From: an uncultured Candidatus Saccharibacteria bacterium
GTDB lineage: Bacteria; Patescibacteriota; Doudnabacteria; UBA920
Length of the DNA stretch: 64,000 nucleotides
NCBI GenBank assembly: GCA_964512925.1
Contig: CAZEKH010000002.1
Coordinates: 57,831 to 121,830 of the forward strand
Direction: 5' to 3'
Part shown: piece after piece, positions 7,214 through 51,643 of the stretch
How positions within the stretch are numbered: position 1 is the stretch's first letter
Layout: each line of letters opens with the position of its first letter
Position numbers and translations under genes: made by a program
Notes under the pieces: model-generated
What the model was told of the DNA's origin: nothing
The model's database searches: none
What the model saw: only the letters and a program-made list of their open reading frames with translations

Positions 7214-7633
7214 ATGAACATGTTCAAACCAACAAATCAAAAAACTATTTCCGGCTATTTAAACGCCCTGGTCCCAGAGCGAAAAAAATCTGTGGTTTTT
7301 CTGCATAACTTCATACAAAAAACCGTACCCAAACTAAAACCGCATTTTGCCTACAACATGCTGGGCTACGGAACTTTTCCTTACACCAACTACAAAAAAC
7401 AGATCGTAAATTGGCCAGTGGTTGCTTTGGCTAGTCAAAAAAATCACATTAGCATCTATGTCTGCGCGCTGGATGCCGGTAAATATCTGGCAGAAAAATA
7501 CAAAAAAGATTTGGGAAAAGTCAGTGTCGGCAAAAGCTGTATTCGTTTTAGAAAACTGGAGAATTTAAATCTTGATATGTTAAAAAAAATATTAAAGCTG
7601 GCAGCTAAAAATCCGGGCTTGGTTTTAAAATAA
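7214..7633 (+). CDS. DUF1801/YdhG-like domain protein
   Basis: 139-aa soluble protein whose pattern resembles the YdhG/DUF1801 family. Weak assignment. Confidence 0.45.
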   Translation: MNMFKPTNQKTISGYLNALVPERKKSVVFLHNFIQKTVPKLKPHFAYNMLGYGTFPYTNYKKQIVNWPVVALASQKNHISIYVCALDAGKYLAEKYKKDLGKVSVGKSCIRFRKLENLNLDMLKKILKLAAKNPGLVLK

Positions 7634-10621: not shown

Positions 10622-11179
10622 ATGACTGAACAGGATGCGATTTCTGCCGTATTAAGCGGCCAAACAGAAAGGTTTTCAGAAATTTATGATTCTTATATCA
10701 AGAAAATCTACGATTTTTTATATGCCCGAACTTTGCACAAACCAACAGCCGAAGATCTAACTTCCCAAGTATTTTTTAAGGCTTATAAAAATTTGTTCCA
10801 ATACAAGCCTAACAAAATAGGAGTCGGGCCCTGGCTGTACGGCATCGCCAGGAACACCCTGATAGACCACTTTAGGCAAAACAAAACCGAACTGCCCATT
10901 GAGACGGTATACGACCTTTCTTCAGACAGTCGGCCGGAGGTAGACACGGACCAGCAAATCAGAAAAGAGCATATAACTAAGCTTTTAAATTTTTTATCGC
11001 CAAAACACAAACAAATCGTGTTATTGCGCCTGTGGGAAGGTTTGTCGCACCAGGAAATCGCCCAAGCGCTCAACATCAGCGAAGCCTCCAGTAAAACAGA
11101 ATTTTTTCGAGCAATCAAATCTCTCAAAGAACACTCAGGCGGTTTAATGTTAGCCTTTATACTATTAACAAAATTCTAA
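10622..11179 (+). CDS. ECF-type RNA polymerase sigma-70 factor
   Basis: Region 2 (GIARNTLIDHFRQ) and region 4 HTH (LLRLWEGLSHQEIAQALNISE). Confidence 0.85.
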   Translation: MTEQDAISAVLSGQTERFSEIYDSYIKKIYDFLYARTLHKPTAEDLTSQVFFKAYKNLFQYKPNKIGVGPWLYGIARNTLIDHFRQNKTELPIETVYDLSSDSRPEVDTDQQIRKEHITKLLNFLSPKHKQIVLLRLWEGLSHQEIAQALNISEASSKTEFFRAIKSLKEHSGGLMLAFILLTKF

Positions 11180-19850: not shown

Positions 19851-21611
19851 TTAGGAGGATAAAAATTTTTCCCAAAAAATCCTTTTTCGGGAAATTTCTT
19901 CAAAATCTCTGCTTAATTTTGACAAACTTTCTGAATTCTTGCCTATTTCCGCCTGGCGGATCTCGCTTTGCAGCTTTTGCTGCTGCTTTTTAAAAGAATT
20001 TATGAGTAAAATGCCAAAAGCTCTTTTAAGTTCACGAAAAAAAATCTCCCTGTCCGTACTCTCTGCTAACATAGATTCTACCATAAATTCAGCCTCTTTG
20101 GCTAGTGCGCTGGAAGCGTCAAGCAAAACTTCCTTATCCTGAAAACCCGGAGCCAGTATTTCAGCGATGCGGGAGTCGGAAAAATCCCCTATCTTGCTTT
20201 CTTTATAAACCATTGCCCGAAAATCCGCATCCAGAAGCATTCCGCCCAAAATCTGCTTTTCCAAAGCCAAAACCCCTTCTGGCAGGCTGGTTTTAGGTTT
20301 ATTTTCCGGCTTTACCACACCGCCCCGGTTTTGTCTGACCAGCTCCCTGATGGTCCTGTCGGACACAGAAAATTTTTCCGACATTCTGCGGATATAATGA
20401 TCCTGCTCCAAAGCATCGCTGACATAAGCAAGTAGCGGCACCGTATGCTCGGTTAAGTAGTGCTTTTGTTCTACCGGGTCTTTAGGGAAAAGTTTTAAAG
20501 CAAAATCCATCTGCCAATCCAAAAACCAAACCGCTTCTGATACCGCCTTCTTCCAGAGGTTGGGACTTTTTTTTATGAGTTCGTCAGGGTCTTTGGCCGC
20601 GCCTAAGACCACCACTTTCAAACGGAAACCCTGCTTTAAAGCCAGCTCCCCGGCTTTTCTACAAGCCGCTTCGCCGGCCTGGTCTGAATCAAAACAAAAT
20701 TTTAAATTTTTACTAAGCGGCGAAAGCAAATTCAGCTGTTCTAAAGTCAAAGCCGTGCCGCTGCCGGCTACTACATTTTCAAACCCGGCCTGGTGCGCGG
20801 CTATACAGTCCATCTGCCCTTCCACCAAGACAGCCTCGTCATTTTTACGGATAGATTTTTTGGCAAAATTCAAACCAAACAAAATTTTACTCTTGTGGTA
20901 AATCAAACTTTCCGGCGAATTTATATATTTACCAGCTTTGCCGTCGTCCAAAGACGGCAGTATACGGGCGGAAAAACCCACAGCCTGGCCAAAAGAGTCA
21001 AAGATCGGAAAAGTGATGCGGCCGCGAAACCGGTCATACACCTGCCCGCGTTCGTTTTTAGTCAGCACCCCGGCCTGTATAGCCGCCTCAGGAAAAACTT
21101 TCTTTTTTTGCAAAGCCTGCTCTAAAGTATGAAAATCCGCTGGCGCAAAACCGACCTGCCATTTTTTTAAAGTTTCTTCCGCAAGTCCCCTTTTTTGCAA
21201 ATACTCCAAAGCCTCTTTGGCGCGCCTGTCTTCAAACAAAATTTTATGGTAAAATCTGGCGGCAAAGTCATTGATTTTGTTTAGCAGTTCTTTTTCGTCA
21301 CGGATTTTCGGATCCTGGGGCCTAAACTCCGGCAAAGTGACGCCGGCTTTTTGGGCTAAAATTTTCAAAGCTTCCTTAAAGTCCACATTTTCAAACTTCT
21401 CCACGAATTCAAAAATATCCCCGCCTTCCCCACAACCAAAACAGTGCCATACCTGGCGGGCAGGGTTAATATGGAAAGACGGCGTCCGTTCGTTATGAAA
21501 AGGACACAAAGCTTTAAAATTCGCCCCGGCTTTTTTCACCTGGATATACCCCCCTATCACATCCGCCACACTCAGCCGGTCTTTTATGTCTTGTACTGTT
21601 GAATCAGCCAT
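19851..21611 (-). CDS. dnaG: DNA primase DnaG
   Basis: CHC2 zinc finger (CPFHNERTPSFHINPARQVWHCFGCGEGGD) and TOPRIM (VLVEGQMDCIAAHQAG). Confidence 0.9.
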   Translation of the reverse strand: MADSTVQDIKDRLSVADVIGGYIQVKKAGANFKALCPFHNERTPSFHINPARQVWHCFGCGEGGDIFEFVEKFENVDFKEALKILAQKAGVTLPEFRPQDPKIRDEKELLNKINDFAARFYHKILFEDRRAKEALEYLQKRGLAEETLKKWQVGFAPADFHTLEQALQKKKVFPEAAIQAGVLTKNERGQVYDRFRGRITFPIFDSFGQAVGFSARILPSLDDGKAGKYINSPESLIYHKSKILFGLNFAKKSIRKNDEAVLVEGQMDCIAAHQAGFENVVAGSGTALTLEQLNLLSPLSKNLKFCFDSDQAGEAACRKAGELALKQGFRLKVVVLGAAKDPDELIKKSPNLWKKAVSEAVWFLDWQMDFALKLFPKDPVEQKHYLTEHTVPLLAYVSDALEQDHYIRRMSEKFSVSDRTIRELVRQNRGGVVKPENKPKTSLPEGVLALEKQILGGMLLDADFRAMVYKESKIGDFSDSRIAEILAPGFQDKEVLLDASSALAKEAEFMVESMLAESTDREIFFRELKRAFGILLINSFKKQQQKLQSEIRQAEIGKNSESLSKLSRDFEEISRKRIFWEKFLSS

Positions 21612-21715: not shown

Positions 21716-23344
21716 CTAACTCTCAGTTATATCTGGAGAGATCGCATAGTGGTCGAGTGCGCTCGCTTGGAAAGCGAGTAAACCTTTACCGGTTTCGGGG
21801 GTTCGAATCCCCCTCTCTCCGCCAGATTTCCAAGTTTGAACCGAAGTGTTTGCAAGGCTTTTTGAGCCTTTAGACGGCTTCGGAGGTTCGATCTTGGAGA
21901 CTTGCAAGTCCATAAGAACATCAAAGACTGGCGTCCATATCGGCGTCAGTTTTTGATTCCTGACGACAAAACCCTCAAAGCAAAGCTTCATCAATGTACG
22001 CTTTTGGTGCAAACCACTCGTCTGGAATACTCTATCCGCATGATCAGTGAAGTCCAAAAGCTCGTTGAACTTTTGAACAAACTTGTCCGACTTTCCCTCG
22101 AGCTCTCCCAAGCGATCCTGATACATCTCTTTCTCTCGCAAGAGCTCGTCCTGAATCTTTATAAATACATCTGCGTCAATGATGCGTTTTGAACGATCCA
22201 CCACGATATTGCGGATCTGTTGCTGAAGCCTTATAAGCTCTTGCTTGAGACTTTTTCTCTCTTTATCCTCCTGATCCAAACGCTCTTTAGCGAAATATTG
22301 AAAATAAGAATCAAGTACCTTTTTGAATTTATCTGGAAGCTGTACTCGTCCGAGCATTACTGCAACCTGCGCCTCGACATCCTCCCAGCGCATATATTTC
22401 TTTTCTACACACTTGGGGTCTTTACGATGACTGCACGAATAATATAGATGGCCTTTTTGCATTTGACCACAAAGCATTGATCCGCAGTCACCACACCTCA
22501 TAAAACCAGCCATTGGATACGAGTGCTTTCGTGTGCGGTCGGCGTAGTGATTATGTTGCTCGATAATTTCTTGAACATCATCAAAAAGTTTTTTGGTTAC
22601 AAGAGGAGGAAAATTTGCCTGAGAAGTTGCTGAGCGAGTTTTAATAAGACCGTAATAGAGTGAATTTGCCAGTATATGCTCAAGAGTCTTACGGCCGACC
22701 AATTTGCCACTGCGAGTCTTTAAACCACGTTTATTGAGCTCTGCTGACAGAGATTCGTAGGAATACTTGCCGGAAGCATAAAGCTCAAAAGCCAACTTTA
22801 TATACGGAGCTCGAATATTATCGATTATAAGCGACTTAGACTTCTTATCATTTAAATAGCCTAAAGGTGCCACTCCCGGAAACCTGCCACGTTCTACAGC
22901 CTCTTTAAGACCTTTCTTGACCTCCCAGCTGATGTTCTGAGATGTCCATTGAGCGATTGACGACATGATGTTTTCAACAAGCTCACCGGAAAAGGATTCA
23001 TCAAATTGCTCGACTACTGAGATAAGGCGGACGTCATGCTTCTTTAGCATCATCTTGATAGCCGCGTAGTCGGCGACGTTACGGCACATACGGTCAAGCT
23101 TGTGGATTAGGATAACATCAACTTTATTGTCGGTCTTTGCTCGATGAAGCATTTTTTGAATCTGTGGACGTTCAACGGTTCGAGCTGATTCACCTTTTTC
23201 TTCATAAACGCCATCTGGTAGTAGATTCCAATGGTGATCCATGCCGTATTTTTGGCATGCTTTGACCTGTGCAGGAATACTCAATTCTCGTTCGGCCTGA
23301 CGAGAGGTAGAGACACGGCCGTAAATTAAATAATTTGTGCTCAT
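21716..23344 (-). CDS. large serine recombinase (phage integrase); annotated 3' end reads through tRNA-Ser
   Basis: N-terminal resolvase catalytic motif (LIYGRVSTSRQ), recombinase domain, Cys-rich zinc ribbon (CGDCGSMLCG...YYSCSHRK) and coiled coil. The last ~35 codons are antisense to the tRNA. Confidence 0.85.
   Translation of the reverse strand: MSTNYLIYGRVSTSRQAERELSIPAQVKACQKYGMDHHWNLLPDGVYEEKGESARTVERPQIQKMLHRAKTDNKVDVILIHKLDRMCRNVADYAAIKMMLKKHDVRLISVVEQFDESFSGELVENIMSSIAQWTSQNISWEVKKGLKEAVERGRFPGVAPLGYLNDKKSKSLIIDNIRAPYIKLAFELYASGKYSYESLSAELNKRGLKTRSGKLVGRKTLEHILANSLYYGLIKTRSATSQANFPPLVTKKLFDDVQEIIEQHNHYADRTRKHSYPMAGFMRCGDCGSMLCGQMQKGHLYYSCSHRKDPKCVEKKYMRWEDVEAQVAVMLGRVQLPDKFKKVLDSYFQYFAKERLDQEDKERKSLKQELIRLQQQIRNIVVDRSKRIIDADVFIKIQDELLREKEMYQDRLGELEGKSDKFVQKFNELLDFTDHADRVFQTSGLHQKRTLMKLCFEGFVVRNQKLTPIWTPVFDVLMDLQVSKIEPPKPSKGSKSLANTSVQTWKSGGERGIRTPETGKGLLAFQASALDHYAISPDITES
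21735..21824 (+). tRNA. tRNA-Ser (anticodon GGA), type II with long variable arm, CCA encoded
   Basis: Hand-folded: acceptor GGAGAGA/TCTCTCC, 3-bp D stem, anticodon stem CTCGC/GCGAG with loop TTGGAAA, variable arm AAACC..GGTTT, T-arm GGGGG-TTCGAAT-CCCCC, G-CCA. Confidence 0.85.
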
Positions 23345-26591: not shown

Positions 26592-27005
26592 CTACTGTTG
26601 TAACTCCTTGATGGTCGTGTCCTGCTCGATGAGCTTTTCTCTCGCTTTTTCGAGCGCGGCCCGCAGGAGATCTGCCTCGTCATTGTTCTCAATGATCAAT
26701 CCTTGGAAGGATCGATAGACAACGAACGAAACAGGCATTGCGAGGGCGACGATGGCGAAAGCGGACAGTACGAGGTCAAGCGGCCACCACCATTGAATAA
26801 TCCTCGGCTGGTAGCATGCTACCAGTGCGAAGCTCACCCAATGACTCATGCAGTACGGGCAAGTGAACAGCTTTCCGAGCCATTCATTGCGTTCTCGTAT
26901 CCACTCGCGCAGATACTGGAACACACTTGCTCTTGTGATGGTAAGCGAGATGACGGCGACTGGCAGTGACAGGAGAAGCACCACCAAAAGCGACTGTGTA
27001 TTCAT
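26592..27005 (-). CDS. small 3-TM membrane protein with CPYC motif
   Basis: Start set at the ATG after TAAGGAGG (MNTQSLL...). FTCPYCMSHW sits between TM1 and TM2. Last gene of the coupled cassette. Confidence 0.5.
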   Translation of the reverse strand: MNTQSLLVVLLLSLPVAVISLTITRASVFQYLREWIRERNEWLGKLFTCPYCMSHWVSFALVACYQPRIIQWWWPLDLVLSAFAIVALAMPVSFVVYRSFQGLIIENNDEADLLRAALEKAREKLIEQDTTIKELQQ

Positions 27006-27016
27006 GGCGTTCCTCC

Positions 27017-27187
27017 TTAACACCCACACTGCTTGCGCGGCGTGGTTTTTTGTAGGAGCTTGTCGATCTCATTCAAGAGATCTCCAACCTCCGGGACTTC
27101 AGCCTTCCGATCCTTCAGCTCGAGCGGAGTGTTGCCGTTGCCGTTGGTCGGACGCTGTGTTTTCGGTTTTTTCTGATCGAATTGCAT
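27017..27187 (-). CDS. 56-aa protein with Pup-like Mpa-binding helix motif (EVGDLLNEIDKLLQK), C-terminus ...RKQCGC
   Basis: ATG preceded by AAGGAGG, 10 nt after the AAA gene stop. DLLNEIDKLL resembles Pup DDLLDEIDDVL. It lacks the GGQ/GGE end. Confidence 0.45.
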   Translation of the reverse strand: MQFDQKKPKTQRPTNGNGNTPLELKDRKAEVPEVGDLLNEIDKLLQKTTPRKQCGC

Positions 27188-27197
27188 AGCGTCCTCC

Positions 27198-29192
27198 TTA
27201 ATTGGCCGCGGCGCCGGAACTCTGCCGGAGCTTGCGGATACTGACGACGTCGTCGCGGAAATCGTGAACGAAATCCGCAATCTCATCGTTGTGGTTGAGG
27301 TCGAAGTTCTGCTGGAACACGCATTCCACAGACTGCATCAAGTCATCCTTCGACATCCCTTGCGGTTTGCCGGTGGAGATATCCCGATGCAGGGCAATGG
27401 ACGTTGCTTGATCCACAACGCCAGCAATCATGGCACCACTGGCCAAGTCTCCCAGCGTGAAGCTACGAGTCTCGTCTTTGTGATTGCCGTTGAGCTGGAT
27501 CGAGTAGAGCACGCGTTTTTCCGAGAACAACTCGAGCGCGCCGACATCCGAGAGCTCGTCATGCGTGTAGCCGTTGTAAAGCGGCACTCGCTTGAGGTAG
27601 AGCCCGAAGATATCACGCGAAGCGTTGAGGTCGGGACGGATGATTTTGACCTTGCGGTCAACACGCCCGTCGCGCGTAACTGCCGGATCGAGGATGTCAG
27701 CCCGATTGGTTGCCAAGAGCACGATTGCTCCGGTTTCCTCGAGGCCGTCCATCTCTGCCAGGAACTGAGGAACGATGGTACGCTCGATGTCCGAACTGAT
27801 TCCCATGCCACGCTTACCGAGAATAGCGTCAGCTTCGTCGATGAAGATCACCGCCGGGTAGCCGTGCTGTTCCTTGTGCTTGCGCGAACGTTGGAAGATC
27901 TGTCGGATGGTTGCCTCCGCAACACCCACGAACCGGTCCAAAATTTCAGGGCCTTTGACGTAGATGAAACCGGAGGGAGCGGAACTGCCGCTGTGAAGCT
28001 TGGCGAGCGCTGTTGCGGCCGCCTTGCCGAGCATGGTCTTTCCGCATCCGGGAGGGCCGTACAGCAGGACACCCTTGATGGGCTTTTTGCCGTAGTGCTT
28101 GTAAATGTCCGGGTAACGGAATGGGAGTTCGATCGCTTCGACCATCTGCTTTTTGGCTTCCACCAAACCGCCGATGTCTTCCCATGCGACATTCGTTGCC
28201 GCCGTGAATGAGAAGCGTTCGTCCTCTTTGCCGAGGTTGAGTCCGATGACAGTGGCACTCTGGTCGAGAACCACGCGATCACCGATTTCCGGTTTAGCCG
28301 GAAGTTTACCATTGAGCACGACACGGATTGCTCCGTTGTGCTCGACTTCGCTCACAGTGTTGTCGATTGGCCGCCGCACGATGGAAATTTCTCCAGCGTA
28401 AACGGGAATCGCCACGTCCACTATTTGCATTGTCTGCATGGACAGCTTGACGGTGTCGCCCGGTTTGACATCTTTGTTGGCCGGCAACTCGACTTCGAGT
28501 TGCTTGCCTTCGTGGAGGACGATTGCCGTGCCGATGAACTGGTTTACGGGTTCGACATAAATCGAGGTCCCGACCCAGAACCAAGGCTCGTCATCAACCT
28601 TCTCGATGCGGACTCTGCGCCATTCTCCGTCGACGTTCCGGATCGTACCGGTTTTGCCGACATAGCGCTTGTCGCCGTTCTCGAACTTTCCAACGATGTC
28701 GACCTTGATTCCCTGAAGGAAATCCTGGGGTCTCGCATCGGGCTGATTCGGGATGGCGAGAGTCATGTTCTTGATCTGGGCGTAGTAGCGACTGGTGTCT
28801 CCGTCACTGAACTTAACGGTAATAACACCGTCGGAGTCCGGAGTGCGAACCACCATGCCGACTTCACCTTCACGATTGTCTGCGCCGGGCAGGATACGCA
28901 CCTGCGTATCTTTGGCGTATGCCGTTTTCTTTTCTGCATCGACGCGCAACACCACAGCGAGCACGAGCGGTGAGGCCGTGAGCTGTTGAAGCAGTTCGTT
29001 CTGCTCTGCCAGTTTGCCTTTGGCGGCTTCGAGCACCGCACGAAGCTCTTGAACTTCTTGCGAACTCTCGACCTCAAGCTGTTGCTTGAGCTGGCCGATA
29101 GTGTTCTGCAACTTCTCGGTTTGGGATTGACGCTGTTGATTCAGCTCTTCCCGTTTCGTGAGCATTTCGCCCAATTCGTCTCTCTTCTTCAT
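27198..29192 (-). CDS. ARC/Mpa-type (proteasome-associated-ATPase-like) AAA+ ATPase: N-terminal coiled coil, OB/beta-barrel region, AAA module
   Basis: Walker A GPPGCGKT, Walker B VIFIDEAD, second region of homology TNRADILDPAVTRDGRVDRK. ARC-type insertion AKLHSGSSAPSGFIYVKGPE and C-terminal SGAMIAGVVDQA...TGKPQG block. No C-terminal GQYL. Confidence 0.8.
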   Translation of the reverse strand: MKKRDELGEMLTKREELNQQRQSQTEKLQNTIGQLKQQLEVESSQEVQELRAVLEAAKGKLAEQNELLQQLTASPLVLAVVLRVDAEKKTAYAKDTQVRILPGADNREGEVGMVVRTPDSDGVITVKFSDGDTSRYYAQIKNMTLAIPNQPDARPQDFLQGIKVDIVGKFENGDKRYVGKTGTIRNVDGEWRRVRIEKVDDEPWFWVGTSIYVEPVNQFIGTAIVLHEGKQLEVELPANKDVKPGDTVKLSMQTMQIVDVAIPVYAGEISIVRRPIDNTVSEVEHNGAIRVVLNGKLPAKPEIGDRVVLDQSATVIGLNLGKEDERFSFTAATNVAWEDIGGLVEAKKQMVEAIELPFRYPDIYKHYGKKPIKGVLLYGPPGCGKTMLGKAAATALAKLHSGSSAPSGFIYVKGPEILDRFVGVAEATIRQIFQRSRKHKEQHGYPAVIFIDEADAILGKRGMGISSDIERTIVPQFLAEMDGLEETGAIVLLATNRADILDPAVTRDGRVDRKVKIIRPDLNASRDIFGLYLKRVPLYNGYTHDELSDVGALELFSEKRVLYSIQLNGNHKDETRSFTLGDLASGAMIAGVVDQATSIALHRDISTGKPQGMSKDDLMQSVECVFQQNFDLNHNDEIADFVHDFRDDVVSIRKLRQSSGAAAN

Positions 29193-29485
29193 GACTGACC
29201 TCCTGACCTTTTGACGTAGTTTTGAGTTTGACCATCTTCGGGATTTTCGAGGCAGACGTCGACTGCTCTCAAAACTTTTGTTCCCGACTGGTCGTCAATT
29301 GTGCCGACAGCGAAATGGACATTGAGCCCTCTCGCCAGTTCCAGTCCACCACGGACTGAAGCCACGACAAGCTTTTGCCCATCGTGCGGACTTTCGGAAT
29401 CTTTCACACGCACCTTCCAGGTCGGTTGACCTTTCGGGGATGTGTCAGACCCGACAACGAAACCTCTGTGCCGTTTCTGATCCAT
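29189..29485 (-). CDS. 99-aa beta-rich protein ending ...NYVKRSGGQS; stop overlaps the AAA gene ATG
   Basis: Start set at the ATG after AAAGGAG (MDQKRHRG...). The C-terminal tail resembles the Pup tail (AYVQKGGQ) plus one Ser. ATGA start/stop overlap with the downstream gene. Confidence 0.45.
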   Translation of the reverse strand: MDQKRHRGFVVGSDTSPKGQPTWKVRVKDSESPHDGQKLVVASVRGGLELARGLNVHFAVGTIDDQSGTKVLRAVDVCLENPEDGQTQNYVKRSGGQS

Positions 29486-35508: not shown

Positions 35509-36558
35509 TTACTCATGAATCCAATACCAGCACTGGTTTTTAAGGTCTTGGCTCAGTTGGTAGGTGTGAGCATGAGAAAGCGCACCCAAGTACGACTGAA
35601 GCGACTGAAATAAAGAATGTTCGTCGATCTCGCCTCGACGAAATTGCATCACTCGGTATTTAAGTTTACGAAATATTCTATGTTTCGTTTTGCTTCTAAG
35701 TAACCGATAGTGTGGCAGAATCACGTATCCCAAAAAATCTACTCCTTGGCCAACGTCAAGAATTGAACATTTCGTGGGATGCAAAGATAGCTTCAATTTG
35801 TCCCCGATAAATTTCTGGAACGAAATGATGAGGCTATCCAGATATTCTTTGTCTGTCGATACAACTATAAAGTCGTCGGTGTAGCGCGCGTAATGTTTGA
35901 CTTTTAAGTCATGCTTAACGAATTGGTCGAATTCGTTCATGTAGACATTGGCAAACAATTGCGAAGTAAGATTGCCGATCGGAAGACCGTGACGATCAAA
36001 AAGTGTCGTTTGGCCGGCCGCAAAGCTTCTGACAATCTGCTCCAATAGCCACATGGTGTCCGGATCAGCAAGTCGTTTTCTGAGAATTGCCAAAAGAATT
36101 TCGTGATCGATCGAATCGAAAAACTTTCGCACATCGCATTTGAGAGCAAAACAAGGCCTTGTATAGTTTTGGCTCTCTTTCCGGATCATGCTCTCGGCCG
36201 CCAACACTCCCTTGTGCGTCCCTTTGCCAACCCGGCATGAAAATGAATTGGCAATAAAGGTCTTCTCAAAAATAGGATTCAGGATTCGGAAAACCGCATG
36301 GTGCAAGACTCGATCTCGCACCATAGCCTTGTGAATGTGGCGAACTTTCGGATCGCAAATGTAAAAACTTGCATACGGTCCATGGGAATAACGCTTGGTA
36401 ATCAAGTCGTGATGCAAAGGGAAAAGATTTTGCTCAAGCGAAAACTCGAAAGCCTGAACATCAGCCTTCTTGCCCTTATCGCTTCGGAACTGCTCCCATG
36501 CCTTAACAATATTTTCCAGCGATGTGATCTGATTGAATAAATCCTTATAAATCTTCAT
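35509..36558 (-). CDS. diversity-generating retroelement reverse transcriptase
   Basis: RT motifs 1-7 including GLPIGNLTSQLFANVY (the I/LGxxxSQ form typical of DGR RTs) and YTDDFIV (YxDD). Start set at MKIYKDLF... (an upstream ATG is possible). Confidence 0.85.
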   Translation of the reverse strand: MKIYKDLFNQITSLENIVKAWEQFRSDKGKKADVQAFEFSLEQNLFPLHHDLITKRYSHGPYASFYICDPKVRHIHKAMVRDRVLHHAVFRILNPIFEKTFIANSFSCRVGKGTHKGVLAAESMIRKESQNYTRPCFALKCDVRKFFDSIDHEILLAILRKRLADPDTMWLLEQIVRSFAAGQTTLFDRHGLPIGNLTSQLFANVYMNEFDQFVKHDLKVKHYARYTDDFIVVSTDKEYLDSLIISFQKFIGDKLKLSLHPTKCSILDVGQGVDFLGYVILPHYRLLRSKTKHRIFRKLKYRVMQFRRGEIDEHSLFQSLQSYLGALSHAHTYQLSQDLKNQCWYWIHE

Positions 36559-36562
36559 AACT

Positions 36563-36913
36563 ATGAATGACTTTGATATTCCCATCTTCAAGAAAGCGTA
36601 CGATCTGTTCAAACTCTTTCATGAATACAGAAGGGTTGTGCCAAAACAAGATCGGTTCACGATTTTTGAACGGTGCGAACAGCTAATTCTTGACGTAATT
36701 GAAAGCATCCTGCAAGCAAGCAGTGAGCAAAAGCAGGTAAAAGTTCCAACACTGGAACGATGCAGTCTAAAACTTAACATGCTCCGGGTCTTTATCCGAC
36801 TAATGAAAGACATTAGAGCGATCGACTCAAAAAAGTATGTAGCATTAGAAAGTGTCGTGGACGAAATCGGCCGAATGCTCGGTGGCTGGATTCGGTCAAC
36901 TAAATCCTGTTAA
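36563..36913 (+). CDS. avd: DGR accessory variability determinant (Avd-like four-helix-bundle protein)
   Basis: 116 aa. The C-terminus VDEIGRMLGGWIRSTKS resembles Bordetella phage bAvd (IAEVGRILGSWIARVNRKG). Start is 5 nt from the RT start on the opposite strand. Confidence 0.7.
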   Translation: MNDFDIPIFKKAYDLFKLFHEYRRVVPKQDRFTIFERCEQLILDVIESILQASSEQKQVKVPTLERCSLKLNMLRVFIRLMKDIRAIDSKKYVALESVVDEIGRMLGGWIRSTKSC

Positions 36914-36959
36914 TAGAAAGGGCATCCGTTTTTCGGATGCCCTTTCTTGTTGTAGAGAG

Positions 36960-37090
36960 ACTTCGAGAGGAAGGCTGAAGCGGAACCGTAGTTCTCGTTG
37001 GCATCGTCGAACCACTTGGTGTCGAACTTGACCCCGTCGTCGTCGAAGTTGAAGATCGGGGCGTTCGAGAAATCGCCATCGGCATCCGGA
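36960..37090 (-). repeat. DGR template repeat (TR), 131 bp
   Basis: Reverse complement aligns base-for-base with 38311..38441. The 9 mismatches are all adenines in this copy. It carries AAC codons where VR varies. Confidence 0.85.
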
Positions 37091-37558
37091 ATATTGTCCC
37101 CATCCATCCGTGTCACCGAGCTTTGAGCTTTACTTCCCGTTGGAAACGGAACTATGAGCTCTTAGCTTTGAACTTAATTTGACAGTATTTACCTCACGGC
37201 AAAACCTGTACCAGACGAGGGCAAGCAGTATCCCATCAACACAACACGCTCATAGAAGCCGTAGCCTCCATGACTCTGGTTGCTATCGTTGAAACGATAG
37301 AGTTCGGCGACAGCAATCCTTGAATGGCTGTACATTAGCCTATACTCAAGCCTATTATACCCCAAAGAGATTGCCGCCTCAAACGCCTTGACAAAACGCA
37401 TTAAATTTGTTAAGGTGAAGCGTCTGAATAGTTCTTTGTTATTTGGCTTATTTATGAGGTAGCGCATTGGGCGTAATTGCGTTTTTGTGCCTATTGCGCT
37501 ACCTCACACAGAGGAAAGCCGTTTGCCAGAGCGACTCTGGTAAATTCAAATTAGGAGG

Positions 37559-38443
37559 TTGACGATGACGACACAATCGATCACGTCCATCACAGACGGT
37601 CAGAGAAAGCAGTACAAACGGTTCGTTGAGGACGCCGCAGACAAAGCGCTTGCGGAAGTCGGACTCGACAAGGACGGAATTCAGAAGCTCATCGAAAAGG
37701 GCGATGAATTCCAGTCACGGATCGTGGAGGCAGTCCGGGAACTTTCCGTGAACGATGAGTTTGCGGACGAGGAAGTTGAATCGAACTATGAATACCCGGG
37801 TGTCTACAAGGTCAGGGCTGTCGCTGAACAAGTGGCAACGTTGCGCGAGGTCTTTCCGGAACTCAAGGACGCCACATTCGACGAAAGCATCGCCGCGAGG
37901 CCGCTTCCCCCGAACGCCGAAGGATGGTTCGCCATCCCCAGGTGGGAAAAGCTTGCTTCTGTCTACGGCGAAGCCGTCGACAAGATGCTTGCGACCATGA
38001 GGTCCGAACGCCGCCGATTCCAAAACTATTGTGAGGATCGGACGGGCGAGGAATACCTGCGCCAGCATGCCAAGACGGTCAAAGCGTTCCAGAAGCTCAT
38101 CGACGAGCAGAAAGGACACGACATTCTGATCGTTCCGTGCCAGTTCGGTCTCCGTCACCGCGGACGCTCGGTTCGCCGGGCCCACGAAGTGATGAACGCC
38201 GCAGAGTTCGGTCTCGGCGCATTCGCTGTCGGGTGTATGCTACTGACACATCCCGAACGGCTCCAAGCCTACGAGAACCTGTTTGTCGACTGCGCCGGAG
38301 ACGAATACTCTCCGGCTGCCGATGGCGATTTCTCGCACGCCCCGCTCTTCCGCTTCGACGACGACGGGGTCGAGTTCGACACCCAGTGGTTCGACGATGC
38401 CAACGAGAGCTACGGTTCCGCTTCAGCCTTCCTCTCGCAGTAA
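37559..38443 (+). CDS. DGR target (variable) protein, 294 aa, no signal peptide, VR at C-terminus
   Basis: RBS AGGAGG. The C-terminal 44 aa (ADGDFSHAPLFRFDDDGVEFDTQWFDDANESYGSASAFLSQ) is encoded by VR. TR encodes ...SNAPIFNFDDDGVKFDTKW...ENYGS... Confidence 0.75.
   Translation: MTMTTQSITSITDGQRKQYKRFVEDAADKALAEVGLDKDGIQKLIEKGDEFQSRIVEAVRELSVNDEFADEEVESNYEYPGVYKVRAVAEQVATLREVFPELKDATFDESIAARPLPPNAEGWFAIPRWEKLASVYGEAVDKMLATMRSERRRFQNYCEDRTGEEYLRQHAKTVKAFQKLIDEQKGHDILIVPCQFGLRHRGRSVRRAHEVMNAAEFGLGAFAVGCMLLTHPERLQAYENLFVDCAGDEYSPAADGDFSHAPLFRFDDDGVEFDTQWFDDANESYGSASAFLSQ
38311..38441 (+). repeat. DGR variable repeat (VR), 131 bp, ending at the target gene stop
   Basis: 122/131 identity to TR. 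All 9 differences (A>C x6, A>G x3) are at TR adenines. A GC hairpin CCGCCGCAGGCGG lies 50 bp downstream. Confidence 0.85.
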
Positions 38444-39095
38444 TTGATCCTTGAGGTCTTGAATTCTTGAGTCTTTTGACTCCTTGAATTCCGCCGCAGG
38501 CGGTCGAAAAAAATTGGGGTTATCCACAGTACATCGTGGATAACCCCTTTCTCTTTTTACATATGTTCAAAACTTATTTATTTTGATAAAATAACATTAC
38601 AATCCAAATGCCTAAACCTGTCGGAATAATTTCGGCAGGCATGGCATAAATCCATCCAAGGTATAGAACCCGTCGTCAGGGATCCTTGGATGGTCGTGTG
38701 GGGAAACTCATGCGTTGAGGCCGAAAGGTCTCTACTCTTGGCGGCGGGCTTTATGCAAAACGATCCCTATTCCAAGAGTAGTTTTTTTGTTATGCACAGT
38801 CTGGCATTGACCGGACTATTGCAAAGAATTTGTGTGCGGTGATATAATAAATTTAACAACTGAATAATTTATGCCTCAAGGGGCATCCTGAAAGGTATTC
38901 CGAGTTTAAGAGCTCGCGATCCGTTATCACTTTTTGTGATTGCAGATCGCGAGCTCTTTTTGTTTTCAGTTGTTGTCAGCTCTCTGATACCCTCGATGGT
39001 CGACATCCGCAATCTGTAATCGACCTCACACTGCCTGGTGCTCACGGGTACTGGGTATATAAAAAACATACAGAGGATGCGCGGGTGTCAGAGAT

Positions 39096-40133
39096 TTGAA
39101 TCAAAAAATAATTATGTTTTCCAAATTCCAATCATTACCAAGTTACTTCGGCGGCAAGCGAAAGCTGGTCAAATATATTTTTAAGCCAATCAAAAAGACT
39201 GATGGAATTTTTATTGACGCATTTCTCGGTGGCGGATCAGTCAGCCTCTATGCCAAGGCCAAAGGATACAAAGTCATCGCCAACGATATTGCATTCCGGT
39301 CCCTCATTATCGGCAAGGCCATCATCGCCAACAACAGCGTGAAGCTCACAACCGAGGACTTAGCGAGACTGTTCGTGGAAACCAAGCATGATGGATTTAT
39401 AAAAAAGAATTACTGCCCGAAAGTATTCACCACCAAGATCGCAGAATTTCTCGACAATGCGGTGGTAGCCGCCAGACAGGTGGAAAACGAAACCAAACGA
39501 TATCTCCTCCTGCACCTTTTAATAAAATTTATTCTGTCCTGTCGACAATTCGGAAAATTTACACACACCCGGGACACGCTGGACTTGGAAGCCCGAAAAT
39601 GGGAGTGGCCGCTACGGTCCAAGTCTCATGCCCCTAAGAATCTCCGGATGATCCAAAACCCGATGATGACTCTGGAAAAATTAAAAGACGAGGTCAATCA
39701 TGGCATCTTTGATAACCATCAAGACAATGAAATACACCAAAAAGACGTGTTCGATTTCCTCAAGAACGTGGCTGGTGATGTTATTTATTTTGATCCTCCT
39801 TATCCTGGCTCTTCTGCCTACGAAGTTGAGTACGGCATTTTAGATAACCTCTTGGCCGGTAAAAAGCTCGATAACAAGCCGAGCGGATTCTCTAACAAGG
39901 ACGCTGACGAATTTCTGGAAAGATTGTTTGAATCGGCAAAACATATCCCTCAATGGGTCATCTCGCTCGGTCAAAACAAAGAGGACATCGGCGTGAAGCC
40001 GGAAAAATTATTGGCAATGGTGCAGAAACACCGGAAAGCCGAAGTGATCATGCTTGATCACAAATGGTCGGTGTCGAACGCCGGCGGCCGCAACCAGAGC
40101 AATAACATTGAGTACATGATTGTAACCTTATGA
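39096..40133 (+). CDS. Dam-family N6-adenine DNA methyltransferase (orphan, phage-encoded)
   Basis: N-terminal YFGGKRKL (the GGK motif of D12-class MTases) and catalytic DPPY (IYFDPPYPG). Confidence 0.75.
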   Translation: MNQKIIMFSKFQSLPSYFGGKRKLVKYIFKPIKKTDGIFIDAFLGGGSVSLYAKAKGYKVIANDIAFRSLIIGKAIIANNSVKLTTEDLARLFVETKHDGFIKKNYCPKVFTTKIAEFLDNAVVAARQVENETKRYLLLHLLIKFILSCRQFGKFTHTRDTLDLEARKWEWPLRSKSHAPKNLRMIQNPMMTLEKLKDEVNHGIFDNHQDNEIHQKDVFDFLKNVAGDVIYFDPPYPGSSAYEVEYGILDNLLAGKKLDNKPSGFSNKDADEFLERLFESAKHIPQWVISLGQNKEDIGVKPEKLLAMVQKHRKAEVIMLDHKWSVSNAGGRNQSNNIEYMIVTL

Positions 40134-48721: not shown

Positions 48722-50293
48722 ATGACCACGACATTCCTGCAAAAGAAAAATAATGCCAAGTCGACTCTGGCAACTGTTGGAGGAATAAATAACTCCGTCA
48801 CGGCGTTGGATGTCCAATCTGGTGACGGTACGAAATTCCCAGCAGTTCCGTTCAATGCGACTCTCTACTCCGATGCCGGGACTCCGGCAAACGGCGAGAT
48901 CGTAAAAGTCACCAGTAAAGGAACCGGTGACAATTGGACGATTGTCCGAGCTCAAGAATCCACCACTGCCCAAACATGGGCTCAAGGAATCAAGGTGGAA
49001 CTTTTGGTAACGGCAAAACTTTTGCAGGACTTGGACACGGCGGTCAACAATCTGGAAAAAAGAGTCCAAGTCGTGGTGGCCACTGATGGATCGGGCGACT
49101 ACAACACTGACGGCACGGCCGACAATGTTGAAATTCAGCAAGCAATCGACAGTCTGCCGTCCGGTGGAGGCATCGTCCTACTCAAAGCCGGAACGTACAC
49201 GATTAATGCCACGATCAACGTTCTGAAAAACAACGTGATCATCCGCGGCGAAGGTAAGGTAACAAAAATGTTCCTTGCCAACAGCTCGAACGTGAACATG
49301 CTCTACATCGGTAACGGCTCGACCGTAGCCAATGACTGCGTGGTCGAGGATATCTTCTTCGATCCGAATGGTGCAAACCAAACATCGCTCGGTTCAGCCG
49401 TATGCATTTACGGAACGTCCGGCGTCAAAGCCCTACGCAACATCATCCGAGGATGCCGGTTCACCAAATGCCAAAACGATAACGTAAAGCTGATCTACGC
49501 CGACAGAAACATTGTTGCCAACAACATCTTCGATGAATGCACGAACGGTGCTGGACTGGGAATTTTCTCGAGCTCGCAATCCAACAACGTGAACGAGAAT
49601 ATATTCATCCATTGCACCTATGGCGTGTACTCGAACAGTCACTACAACAACATCTCCGGTAACGTATTTGTCGACAACACCTATGGCGTGGGTCTGAACG
49701 GAGTGGTCAATTGCAGTGTTTCCGGAAACTGGTTCGGGAGTGTCTCTTATTACCAGACAGGCGTATGGCTGGCTGGTGCGTCTGCACGACACTCGATCAC
49801 CGGCAACACTTTCTACCAGCCATACAGGGCAGTTCTCGGAGATGCCAATACTGGCCTTTACTCAAATGTCATCAGTGGCAACAGCATCCACCTGTCGAAC
49901 CAAGAAGCGATCTACCTGCAAGCCGGTGCGAACCAAAATAACATCGTAGGAAATACGATCCGACAATCATCTCTTCACGCAATCAGAATCAGAGGATCAA
50001 AGAATGTCATCTCAAGCAACGTGCTAAGCGATAACGGCGGCGGTGCGAACAACACCTACAGTGATATTTTTCTCGATGACGACGGTACCACGTTCTCAAC
50101 CTACAACGTGGTGATTGGCAACAACTGCCAAGCGGCTGGGGCCAACAAAGTCGCATACCACATCCGAGAAAATGCAGTCGGTGATGATTACAACCTGATA
50201 ATAGGAAACATCTGCAAGGACGGAGTGACCGCCCAAATCAGCGTGCAGGGAGTGAACTCAGTGCGAGGAACTAACATACCGGCATCGGGATAA
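48722..50293 (+). CDS. right-handed parallel beta-helix (pectate-lyase-fold) tail fibre/tailspike, possible depolymerase
   Basis: Repeated 22-25-aa PbH1-like units rich in N/G/V/I (NNIFDECTNGAG, NIFIHCTYGVYSNS, GNVFVDNTYGVGL, GNSIHLSNQ, GNTIRQSS...). Confidence 0.6.
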   Translation: MTTTFLQKKNNAKSTLATVGGINNSVTALDVQSGDGTKFPAVPFNATLYSDAGTPANGEIVKVTSKGTGDNWTIVRAQESTTAQTWAQGIKVELLVTAKLLQDLDTAVNNLEKRVQVVVATDGSGDYNTDGTADNVEIQQAIDSLPSGGGIVLLKAGTYTINATINVLKNNVIIRGEGKVTKMFLANSSNVNMLYIGNGSTVANDCVVEDIFFDPNGANQTSLGSAVCIYGTSGVKALRNIIRGCRFTKCQNDNVKLIYADRNIVANNIFDECTNGAGLGIFSSSQSNNVNENIFIHCTYGVYSNSHYNNISGNVFVDNTYGVGLNGVVNCSVSGNWFGSVSYYQTGVWLAGASARHSITGNTFYQPYRAVLGDANTGLYSNVISGNSIHLSNQEAIYLQAGANQNNIVGNTIRQSSLHAIRIRGSKNVISSNVLSDNGGGANNTYSDIFLDDDGTTFSTYNVVIGNNCQAAGANKVAYHIRENAVGDDYNLIIGNICKDGVTAQISVQGVNSVRGTNIPASG

Positions 50294-50299
50294 AAAATT

Positions 50300-51643
50300 A
50301 TGTTCAACACGTACCCACTCAATTCTGCCCAGCTCAACAGCACCGCATCACAGCCGGTGTCGCAGTCAGTGAGCTATGTGCTGGATGTATTCACCCTGAT
50401 AACCAAGCCGGTCACGTATCTGTTCGATCAGTGCGTGGCAGTTCTCTCAAATAAAACTTATAAGCTTGACATCACGAATCTTGCGGCGAAATCAATCGCA
50501 TACGTGTTTGACGAACTGGTGCTTGTACTCAAATCCATTGCCTACGTTCTCGACCTCCGAAATCTCGCAACGAAAGCCCTGACCTACGTGCTTGATCTTA
50601 AAAATCTTGCGCTAAAGTCCATCCAGTATCTCTGGGATCAGAGAGTTCTCGCAATCAAAGCGATCACGTATCCATTCGACATCATCTGGGGTGCGGTACT
50701 GGCAACGATCTATAAACTTGATCTCCGAAATCTCGCAACAAAAAACATTCGGTACATGCTCGACACCCTGATCACATTAGGGAGATCGATAACGTACAAA
50801 TTTGATTCGTTCCTTTCGGCGATCCGGCTGACAGCCTATAAGCTCGATATCCGAAACCTTGCCACTAAGATAGCAACCTACCTGATCGACATCGGAGGCG
50901 TCGTGGCAAGAATTGAAACTTACAAATTAGATATCAGGAACCTGACAGGCCGAACCGTGAGCTACCTCATGGACATACGAGGACTAGCCGGCAAAGTGTG
51001 GCGTTACGCATTCGACATCAGAAATCTTGCAACCAAGTCCGGACAATATCTGCTGGACATCCTGAACGCCACCAGCAAGAACGTGCGATATGCCTTCGAC
51101 ATCCTGCTCTACGTGATGACACAAACATCGTACCTGTTTGACGTGAGAAGTCTGACCGCTAAAGCAACGAGATATCTGCTGGACATCCGGTCCCTCATTG
51201 CCCGAACTCTTACCTACAAGCTCGATATCCGAGGACTCGTGCTCAAGATAACTGCCTACGTTTTGGATATCAGAAGTTTGATCGCAAAATCCATGACTTA
51301 CGTGATCCGGATTCTAAGTCGAATCGCCAAGTGGTGGACGTACAAGTTCGACATCCTGATCACACTCGGAAAGTTCTGGACATACAAATGGAATGTTCGA
51401 GTGCTTATCGCAAAGATTTGGAAGTATGTATTCGACATCTGGAAAATCCCCGAGGGAGTAAAGATCGTCGTTGAATTCTTAAGTGCAAAACTTTCGGTGC
51501 TTATGCTTTCAGCCAAAGAATCTCTCGGACTCGTGAATGCCAAGACAAGCATTGAGGTCAAGACCGCCCGGCAAGACCAGCAGATGCAGACAGCCAAAAC
51601 TGACGTGGTTCTGCCGAGCGATAAAAAAGATATAAACCTATGA
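50300..51643 (+). CDS. tandem 11-residue (33-bp) repeat protein, probable fibre/whisker
   Basis: About 35 consecutive hendecad units of consensus xYxLDIRNLAxK (YVLDLRNLATK, YKLDIRNLATK, YLLDIRSLIAR...). Confidence 0.6.
   Translation: MFNTYPLNSAQLNSTASQPVSQSVSYVLDVFTLITKPVTYLFDQCVAVLSNKTYKLDITNLAAKSIAYVFDELVLVLKSIAYVLDLRNLATKALTYVLDLKNLALKSIQYLWDQRVLAIKAITYPFDIIWGAVLATIYKLDLRNLATKNIRYMLDTLITLGRSITYKFDSFLSAIRLTAYKLDIRNLATKIATYLIDIGGVVARIETYKLDIRNLTGRTVSYLMDIRGLAGKVWRYAFDIRNLATKSGQYLLDILNATSKNVRYAFDILLYVMTQTSYLFDVRSLTAKATRYLLDIRSLIARTLTYKLDIRGLVLKITAYVLDIRSLIAKSMTYVIRILSRIAKWWTYKFDILITLGKFWTYKWNVRVLIAKIWKYVFDIWKIPEGVKIVVEFLSAKLSVLMLSAKESLGLVNAKTSIEVKTARQDQQMQTAKTDVVLPSDKKDINL

Follow-up and report, generated by a model that had tools for sequence, protein, structure and literature searches.

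Diversity-generating retroelements (DGRs) from bacteria that belong to the candidate phyla radiation (CPR) are the described systems closest to the element reported here. In 90% of CPR DGRs, the genes follow architecture B3, TR-(avd)-RT, in which the accessory gene avd lies on the reverse strand between the template repeat (TR) and the reverse transcriptase (RT) gene, and essentially no information on the phage association of these elements was available (Wu et al. 2018, PMC5758913). RT clade 2 is restricted to CPR, and its targets typically show no recognisable transmembrane (TM) segment or conserved domain; whether such targets are genuinely non-membrane-bound was left undecided (Roux et al. 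2021, PMC8144416). In this study, a DGR located on a 64,000-nt stretch of contig CAZEKH010000002.1, hereafter called the window, was analysed computationally and compared with these systems. The element shares with CPR-type DGRs the succession of TR, opposite-strand avd and RT, a host among the Patescibacteria, a variable repeat (VR) at the C-terminal end of the target, adenine-specific mismatches, and a target without TM segment, signal peptide or known domain; unlike them, it sits in a prophage-like region.

The DGR of Bordetella phage BPP-1 (mtd-avd-TR-brt) offers a further point of comparison. Both systems have an RT with the SQ motif, an Avd protein, adenine mutagenesis between TR and VR, a VR at the 3' end of the target gene, a GC hairpin after the VR, and a stem-loop just after the TR. 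They differ in that all BPP-1 genes lie on one strand with avd upstream of TR, and in that the BPP-1 target is a tail-fibre protein. Moreover, the structured RNA of BPP-1 (Sp, Rfam RT-10) lies downstream of TR, whereas a large covarying structure was found upstream of TR in the window, where the sequence downstream of TR is antisense to avd.

From the evidence below, it was concluded with a probability of roughly 0.85 that the locus is a complete CPR-lineage DGR of architecture B3, probably of RT clade 2 and probably functional, in a prophage-like element of a chromosome that is likely Doudnabacteria-like. The original prediction, made from the sequence of the window, was correct in calling a DGR. 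As a DGR, the element is of a kind already known and adds little, since CPR DGRs with such a gene order and with targets lacking domains and signals have been catalogued since 2017–2021. What is added here is the prophage context, a structural model suggesting a lectin-like fold for a large target family, a covarying leader RNA, and an association with the LOOT RNA.

The retroelement and its relatives

The TR (36960–37090, minus strand) comprises 131 nt with 28 adenines, and the VR (38311–38441, plus strand) covers the final 43 codons of the target gene. This pair was the strongest inverted repeat within 34.5–39.5 kb (131 nt, 93%). The alignment was gapless with nine mismatches, in all of which TR has adenine and VR has C or G. 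As TR contains 28 adenines per 131 nt, the chance of all nine mismatches falling at TR adenines is approximately (28/131)^9, that is, about 1e-6. In the reading frame of the target, all nine, and 27 of the 28 TR adenines in total, occupy the first or second codon position. The similarity broke off sharply at both ends, and the VR ended 2 nt short of the last base of the target stop codon. The 3' segment is poor in adenines and identical in TR and VR except for one fixed difference, which marks it as a putative boundary of the kind associated with the initiation of mutagenic homing (IMH). This difference, the last mismatch (CGAAG in TR, CGCAG in VR), was constant in every locus inspected and is therefore not a random mutagenesis event; it is either a fixed difference between donor and recipient or the outcome of selection for the terminal Gln, and not a sampled mutation.

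The genes of the element were full length. The RT gene (35509–36558, minus strand, ATG at 36558) encodes 349 aa and matched PF00078 (E 4e-24) and phrog_1423 (E 7e-115); it carries GLPIGNLTSQ, which is of the (I/L)GxxxSQ form, and the catalytic YTDD, and the RTs of relatives aligned from residue 1 of this ATG. Head-to-head with it, with 4 nt between the two ATGs, lies avd (36563–36913, plus strand, 116 aa). The Avd protein matched Pfam PF22296 bAvd (E 5e-19, 69.1 bits, cut-off 40), NCBIfam NF033474 DivGenRetAVD (83.8 bits, passing the curated cut-off of 80) and phrog_3206. The target gene (37565–38443, plus strand, 292 aa) is preceded by AGGAGG 6 nt 5' of its ATG and carries the VR at its 3' end. 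With intact RT, Avd and target frames and all mismatches at TR adenines, the proposal of a complete, adenine-specific DGR was borne out; the coordinates proposed for its parts likewise held, apart from that of the GC hairpin described below, which was corrected.

To place the element among its relatives, 82 target-centred loci were compared, namely, the window, L004 and L007–L086. RT and Avd were found within 6 kb of the target in 34 of the 82 loci, and the two genes were divergent in every one of these 34, with starts 0–23 nt apart in 33 of them (the exception, L084, had 650 nt). A TR was found in 33 loci, always just beyond the 3' end of avd and on the RT strand. Across these 33 loci, 589 of 628 TR/VR mismatches fell at TR adenines. 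Two arrangements were observed. In 24 loci, target, TR, reversed avd and RT follow each other and are otherwise co-oriented; in nine loci including the window, the TR-avd-RT block lies upstream of the target and is inverted relative to it. Along the minus strand, the window reads TR (37090–36960), antisense avd and RT (36558–35509), which is the B3 order. The divergence of avd and RT and the position of the cassette on the strand opposite to the target had both been presented as unusual. Neither view held: the former is the published B3 architecture (PMC5758913) and was present in 34/34 relatives with RT and Avd, and the inversion is shared by 9/33 loci. As the layout and the signal-less target have been published for CPR and were seen in the relatives, they are the norm for this lineage.

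In approximately half of the loci, the target had no RT or TR within 6 kb, and the conserved sequence 3' of the VR was still kept. Besides avd and RT, no conserved partner gene of the target was found; methylases, type III restriction genes and serine recombinases occurred near it in subsets of loci.

Several relatives showed arrangements of their own. L004, a 340-kb CPR contig, carries a target without nearby RT or TR, together with LOOT and a shortened methylase; this group is bracketed by 175-nt inverted repeats (7286–7460 and 10860–11034, 98% identity) beside a tRNA gene cluster and could represent a remnant, or else a segment that is invertible or mobile. In L008 (2133–3558), a truncated RT abuts a C-terminal serine recombinase fragment that is 83% identical to the recombinase of the window; thus, rearrangement or decay of the cassette occurs in the lineage. 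L052, L074, L083, L084 and L086 each hold the target family twice, as full-length copies in tandem, and in L052, L074, L084 and L086 the best VR repeat was the VR of the second copy, without adenine bias.

Structured RNAs around the repeats

A structured leader of the TR RNA, approximately 260 nt long (37091–37348, minus strand), was conserved in 26 loci. RNAalifold applied to these loci gave 59 pairs, of which 44 had compensatory changes; 95.2% of the cells paired, compared with 36–49% when the partners were slid, and none of 500 shuffles reached the observed covariation. Just 5' of the leader lies a promoter-like site, TTGAGG-17-TATAAT (37354–37382, minus strand), and the TATAAT-like box was conserved at this position in relatives. 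Rfam gave no family for the leader beyond a weak partial match to RT-7 (RF03028) at 37219–37280, which scored 26.8 bits, below the gathering score of 116.8, and covered only the 5' 46 model positions; five related loci gave no match to an Rfam RT-x family at E ≤0.1. The leader overlaps a mechanical open reading frame (ORF) of 92 aa (37189–37467) that gene callers annotate, and this ORF is most likely leader RNA and no gene. By mechanistic analogy, the leader may stand upstream in place of the structured RNA that BPP-1 carries downstream of its TR.

On the other side of TR, a perfect 14-bp hairpin (36915–36947) lies between the TR 3' end, from which it is separated by 12 nt, and the avd stop codon. 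A 12-bp stem of this hairpin covaried across 26 loci. It is probably a bidirectional terminator. In the RNA of Bordetella phage BPP-1, an Avd-binding stem-loop (Sp 3-33) is located just after TR (bioRxiv 10.1101/2023.10.23.563531); because of its corresponding position, the hairpin could also be the stem-loop by which the TR RNA binds Avd.

Downstream of the VR, a CTTGA-like repeat tract (38444–38490, plus strand) directly follows the target stop codon and is present family-wide, including in copies without a nearby RT. It is followed by the GC hairpin CCGCC-GCA-GGCGG, whose position was corrected to 38491–38503. As had been proposed, this hairpin belongs to the element: it was conserved, and its stem was kept by compensatory changes in relatives (CACCGC/GCGGTG, CCTGCC/GGCAGG and GCGCC/GGCGC), as read by eye rather than from a formal pair count. 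It may correspond to the GC-rich inverted repeat that lies downstream of the IMH in the Bordetella phage DGR (Wu 2018).

These features suggest how the element would work. An RNA of approximately 430 nt would be transcribed on the minus strand from its own promoter near 37354–37382 and would comprise leader, TR, the 12-nt linker and the hairpin at 36915–36947. The RT-Avd complex would bind this RNA, copy TR into cDNA and misincorporate opposite adenines, and the cDNA would replace the VR at the 3' end of the target gene. The direction of homing would be set by the fixed 3' difference between TR and VR together with the conserved tract and hairpins downstream of the VR. In this manner, up to 20 of the last 43 codons of the target could be recoded, on a surface predicted to be lectin-like. 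The leader and the neighbouring LOOT RNA, neither of which is mentioned in Wu 2018 (PMC5758913) or Roux 2021 (PMC8144416), could guide work on the priming and regulation of cDNA synthesis in B3-type DGRs.

LOOT is an orphan metagenomic motif. In the window, a LOOT RNA (Rfam RF03000) was found at 38609–38732 on the plus strand, starting 166 nt past the target stop codon. Its score of 78.8 bits exceeded the gathering score (46.4), and the match covered model positions 1–121, the full length. A -10 box of its own, TGATAAAAT (38584–38592), and a terminator-like hairpin with a T-run (38732–38788) were read from the sequence. Using the covariance model, LOOT was detected in 18 of the 82 target-centred loci, and in eight of the nine loci arranged like the window it lay 165–196 nt past the target stop codon. 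The loci with LOOT, besides the window, were L004, L008, L009, L015, L017, L025, L032, L034, L042–L045, L052, L061, L066, L070, L071, L088 and L112. An exact-pattern LOOT scan of IMG/VR returned mostly chance matches, with only 2 of 80 loci being true LOOT by the covariance model. One IMG/VR contig found only by the LOOT pattern, L112, has a different CPR-type DGR adjoining LOOT. A serine recombinase gene neighbours LOOT in L045, L070, L071 and L088, in divergent orientation and at a distance of approximately 220 nt.

The target family and alternative explanations

The target had no match in Pfam, PHROG, NCBIfam or PADLOC, and a profile search of PDB sequences gave none either; a Pfam scan of 96 diverse family members revealed no common family. 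The family itself is very large, comprising no fewer than 2280 clusters at the 90% identity level and 1842 representatives at the 50% level, nearly all of approximately 290 aa. In a scan of one genome per species, it was found in 247 genomes. The specific lineages named for these genomes were Patescibacteria groups (Parcubacteria, Nealsonbacteria, Uhrbacteria, Magasanikbacteria, Berkelbacteria and others), and some automatically labelled genomes read "Gammaproteobacteria" or only "bacterium". The scaffold was unusually conserved (60–77% identity among the top matches), and approximately 15–20 fixed positions were hypervariable within the final 45 residues, in the pattern SxAPxFxFxxGxVxFxAxWxDxAxxxYGSASAFLSQ. 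In two 90% clusters of relatives, nearly all differences within the cluster lay at the hypervariable positions of the VR, and it follows that close relatives are being diversified.

The original prediction had proposed a structure prediction of the C-terminus, with a C-type-lectin or formylglycine-generating enzyme (FGE) fold expected. With 40 close homologues, AlphaFold gave a poor model (pLDDT 58, VR region <50); with the diverse 96-sequence alignment, pLDDT rose to 96.5 and pTM to 0.90. A confident model was therefore obtained, whereas a Foldseek search of it against PDB and BFVD returned no significant match. The model points to a divergent C-type-lectin/FGE-like domain at residues ~115–292 with the VR in its C-terminal strands; the helical N-terminal part of approximately 110 residues had no convincing structural match. 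Since the C-terminal strands of this predicted domain hold the variable residues, the target is modelled as a soluble, acidic, variable ligand-binding protein of a very large CPR-specific family. Its role might be to recognise changing partners in phage–host or symbiont–host conflict, a suggestion made with low confidence. The lectin-like model also bears on the question raised by Roux et al., that is, whether such targets contain unrecognised lectin folds and are true non-membrane CPR targets. An 18-nt inverted repeat (89% complementary, 16-nt spacer) at 37455–37506, between the promoter of the TR RNA and the ribosome-binding site of the target, could be an operator or a structure in the 5' untranslated region of the target.

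Several observations weigh against a complete and functional DGR of this type. Three sequencing runs each yielded the same VR haplotype on assembly, and the target is the single member of its 90% cluster. Furthermore, adenines are scarcer in the TR than in the family consensus (AAC became GAC and CAAG became CGGG, for instance), neither a promoter of the RT gene nor a priming site was identified, and no convincing att-like direct repeats were found within 21–62 kb, leaving the element boundaries unmapped. Membership in RT clade 2 is probable from host, architecture and target type. The haplotype, the singleton cluster and the lost adenines would also be expected of a recently inactivated relic, whose parts look intact and which no longer diversifies its target; the same applies to the small number of variable-position differences, only eight plus the fixed one, and to the close relative L008 with its RT truncated and fused to a recombinase fragment. 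We consider such a relic unlikely. The RT, Avd and target frames are full length with catalytic motifs present, the variable mismatches are all still adenine-specific with no drift at other bases, and the leader, hairpins and post-VR tract agree with the family consensus. One of these hairpins, the 12-bp stem GGGGTTATCCAC/GTGGATAACCCC with a T-run at 38516–38547, is read here as the terminator of the target gene, and had previously been described as an inverted pair of DnaA-box-like nonamers. Under that description, the TTATCCACA/GTGGATAAC pair would be a DnaA-binding site tying the target locus to replication control. The pair matches the E. coli DnaA-box consensus exactly, and the exact nonamer recurs 3' of the target in 17 of 80 relatives. 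However, two copies of TTATCCACA in the window against 0.37 expected is not significant, as 5 of 100 shuffles reach two; in the relatives, the nonamer always lies within the stem of a terminator-like hairpin with a T-run; the arms covary (for example, TATCCGC/GCGGATA and TGTTCAC/GTGGACA); and the terminator hairpins that other subclades carry in this position after the VR are unrelated. Because of the copy number, the covarying arms and the unrelated terminators elsewhere, the DnaA-box description was rejected, and a role in replication control appears highly improbable.

A working CPR-type DGR with a terminator after its target gene being preferred, the site where the target acts has to be considered. 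The protein could act outside the cell, as a surface or secreted adhesin of an episymbiotic CPR cell or as an accessory protein of the virion, without a classical signal. Most characterised DGR targets bind external ligands (PMC8144416), DGRs of CPR and DPANN have been proposed to mediate host-cell interaction (PMC10907252), and the gene lies within a prophage-like region, so that this explanation is conceivable; we nevertheless hold it to be somewhat doubtful. As the original prediction stated, the target has no signal peptide or TM segment: no hydrophobic segment was found at its N-terminus, and only 1 of the 96 diverse family members has one, the most hydrophobic stretch of the family being an internal conserved helix. 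Moreover, approximately 10 kb separate the gene from the tail module, a module with a fibre gene of its own (48722–50293); only two viral contigs in IMG/VR carry the family, against the 247 species genomes; and phage structural genes are absent within 6 kb at most loci. The lack of an export signal was also thought to be unusual, a view that has to be given up as it is family-wide and was already reported for CPR DGR targets (PMC8144416).

Predicted cytoplasmic DGR targets have been published for other lineages; the sensors concerned are C-type-lectin proteins predicted to be cytoplasmic and linked to conflict systems, traits that the target may share (Dore et al. 2024, PMC10907252). A neighbourhood of defence genes is likewise present in the window. 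Those sensors, which belong to RT clade 5, carry fusions to STAND NTPase or MoxR-associated domains, whereas the target here contains neither an NTPase nor an effector domain and lacks a conserved partner gene. The target family also differs from the C-type-lectin DGR targets of the FGE-like kind. TvpA of Treponema denticola is a cell-surface lipoprotein. Compared with TvpA (PDB 2y3c) and other such targets, the family here lacks an export signal, shows no detectable sequence similarity, and has the N-terminal part of approximately 110 residues without convincing match. A broader proposal would be that the ~290-aa family consists of intracellular, DGR-diversified sensors or anti-defence binders carried on CPR prophages and integrative elements next to defence islands, with the leader replacing the downstream spacer RNA of BPP-1 and with LOOT either linked as a component or serving the serine recombinases next to it as an integration landmark. 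Taken as a whole, this proposal is speculative and improbable as it stands. The neighbourhood, with AbiE and ATPases here and with methylases, type III restriction genes and serine recombinases elsewhere, is compatible with a role in conflict or in mobile elements and does not prove it.

Genomic setting of the element

The window is a stretch of cellular chromosome and not a free phage. RpoD of the same 192-kb contig (18528–19850) was 78–85% identical to proteins named Doudnabacteria or Patescibacteria, and the host was thus taken to be a CPR bacterium. RpoD and DnaG (19851–21611) precede a tRNA-Ser and a large serine recombinase gene (21716–23344, minus strand). The stretch separating the recombinase from the DGR holds genes for an IetA-like AAA ATPase, for a 994-aa Ppl/AriA-like ATPase, and for AbiEi/AbiEii and RadC. 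From 39 to 59 kb, genes for a Dam-type methylase, ParB, small and large terminase, portal, major capsid, tail-fibre and lysis-like proteins follow, with the terminase, portal, capsid and tail genes at 41–59 kb, and pyruvate phosphate dikinase at 61.5–64 kb is cellular again. Based on the recombinase next to tRNA-Ser, the defence and phage genes and the cellular flanks, the DGR was assigned to the accessory portion of a prophage-like element that is integrated and spans approximately 21.7–59 kb. The gene annotations agreed with the earlier placement of the target outside the tail module of a phage-like region, with the defence genes (AbiEi/AbiEii and the ATPases) upstream of the DGR and the Dam-type methylase downstream. 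A CPR-type DGR is thereby placed in a prophage-like element beside AbiE and ATPase defence genes; the phage association of such DGRs had been described as essentially unknown.

Further observations were made on the surrounding genes. The tRNA-Ser call (21735–21824, plus strand) overlaps the 3' end of the recombinase ORF, which is compatible with an integration junction located at this tRNA gene or close to it. The Dam-type methylase (39096–40133, plus strand) was 91–92% identical in L004, L008 and L017, whereas the target proteins of these loci were only 64–76% identical, and L017 also has RadC and ParB in common with the window; this suggests a mobile module of RadC, DGR, LOOT, methylase and ParB moving between CPR lineages. 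The IetA-like AAA ATPase gene (27198–29192, minus strand) stands out by its G+C content, 0.56 over 27000–29200 compared with 0.40–0.50 around it, which suggests separately acquired defence cargo. In the tail region, a 447-aa ORF (50300–51643) contains five copies of a 47-nt unit at 50465–51057, spaced by multiples of 42 nt, which indicates a repeat-containing structural protein.

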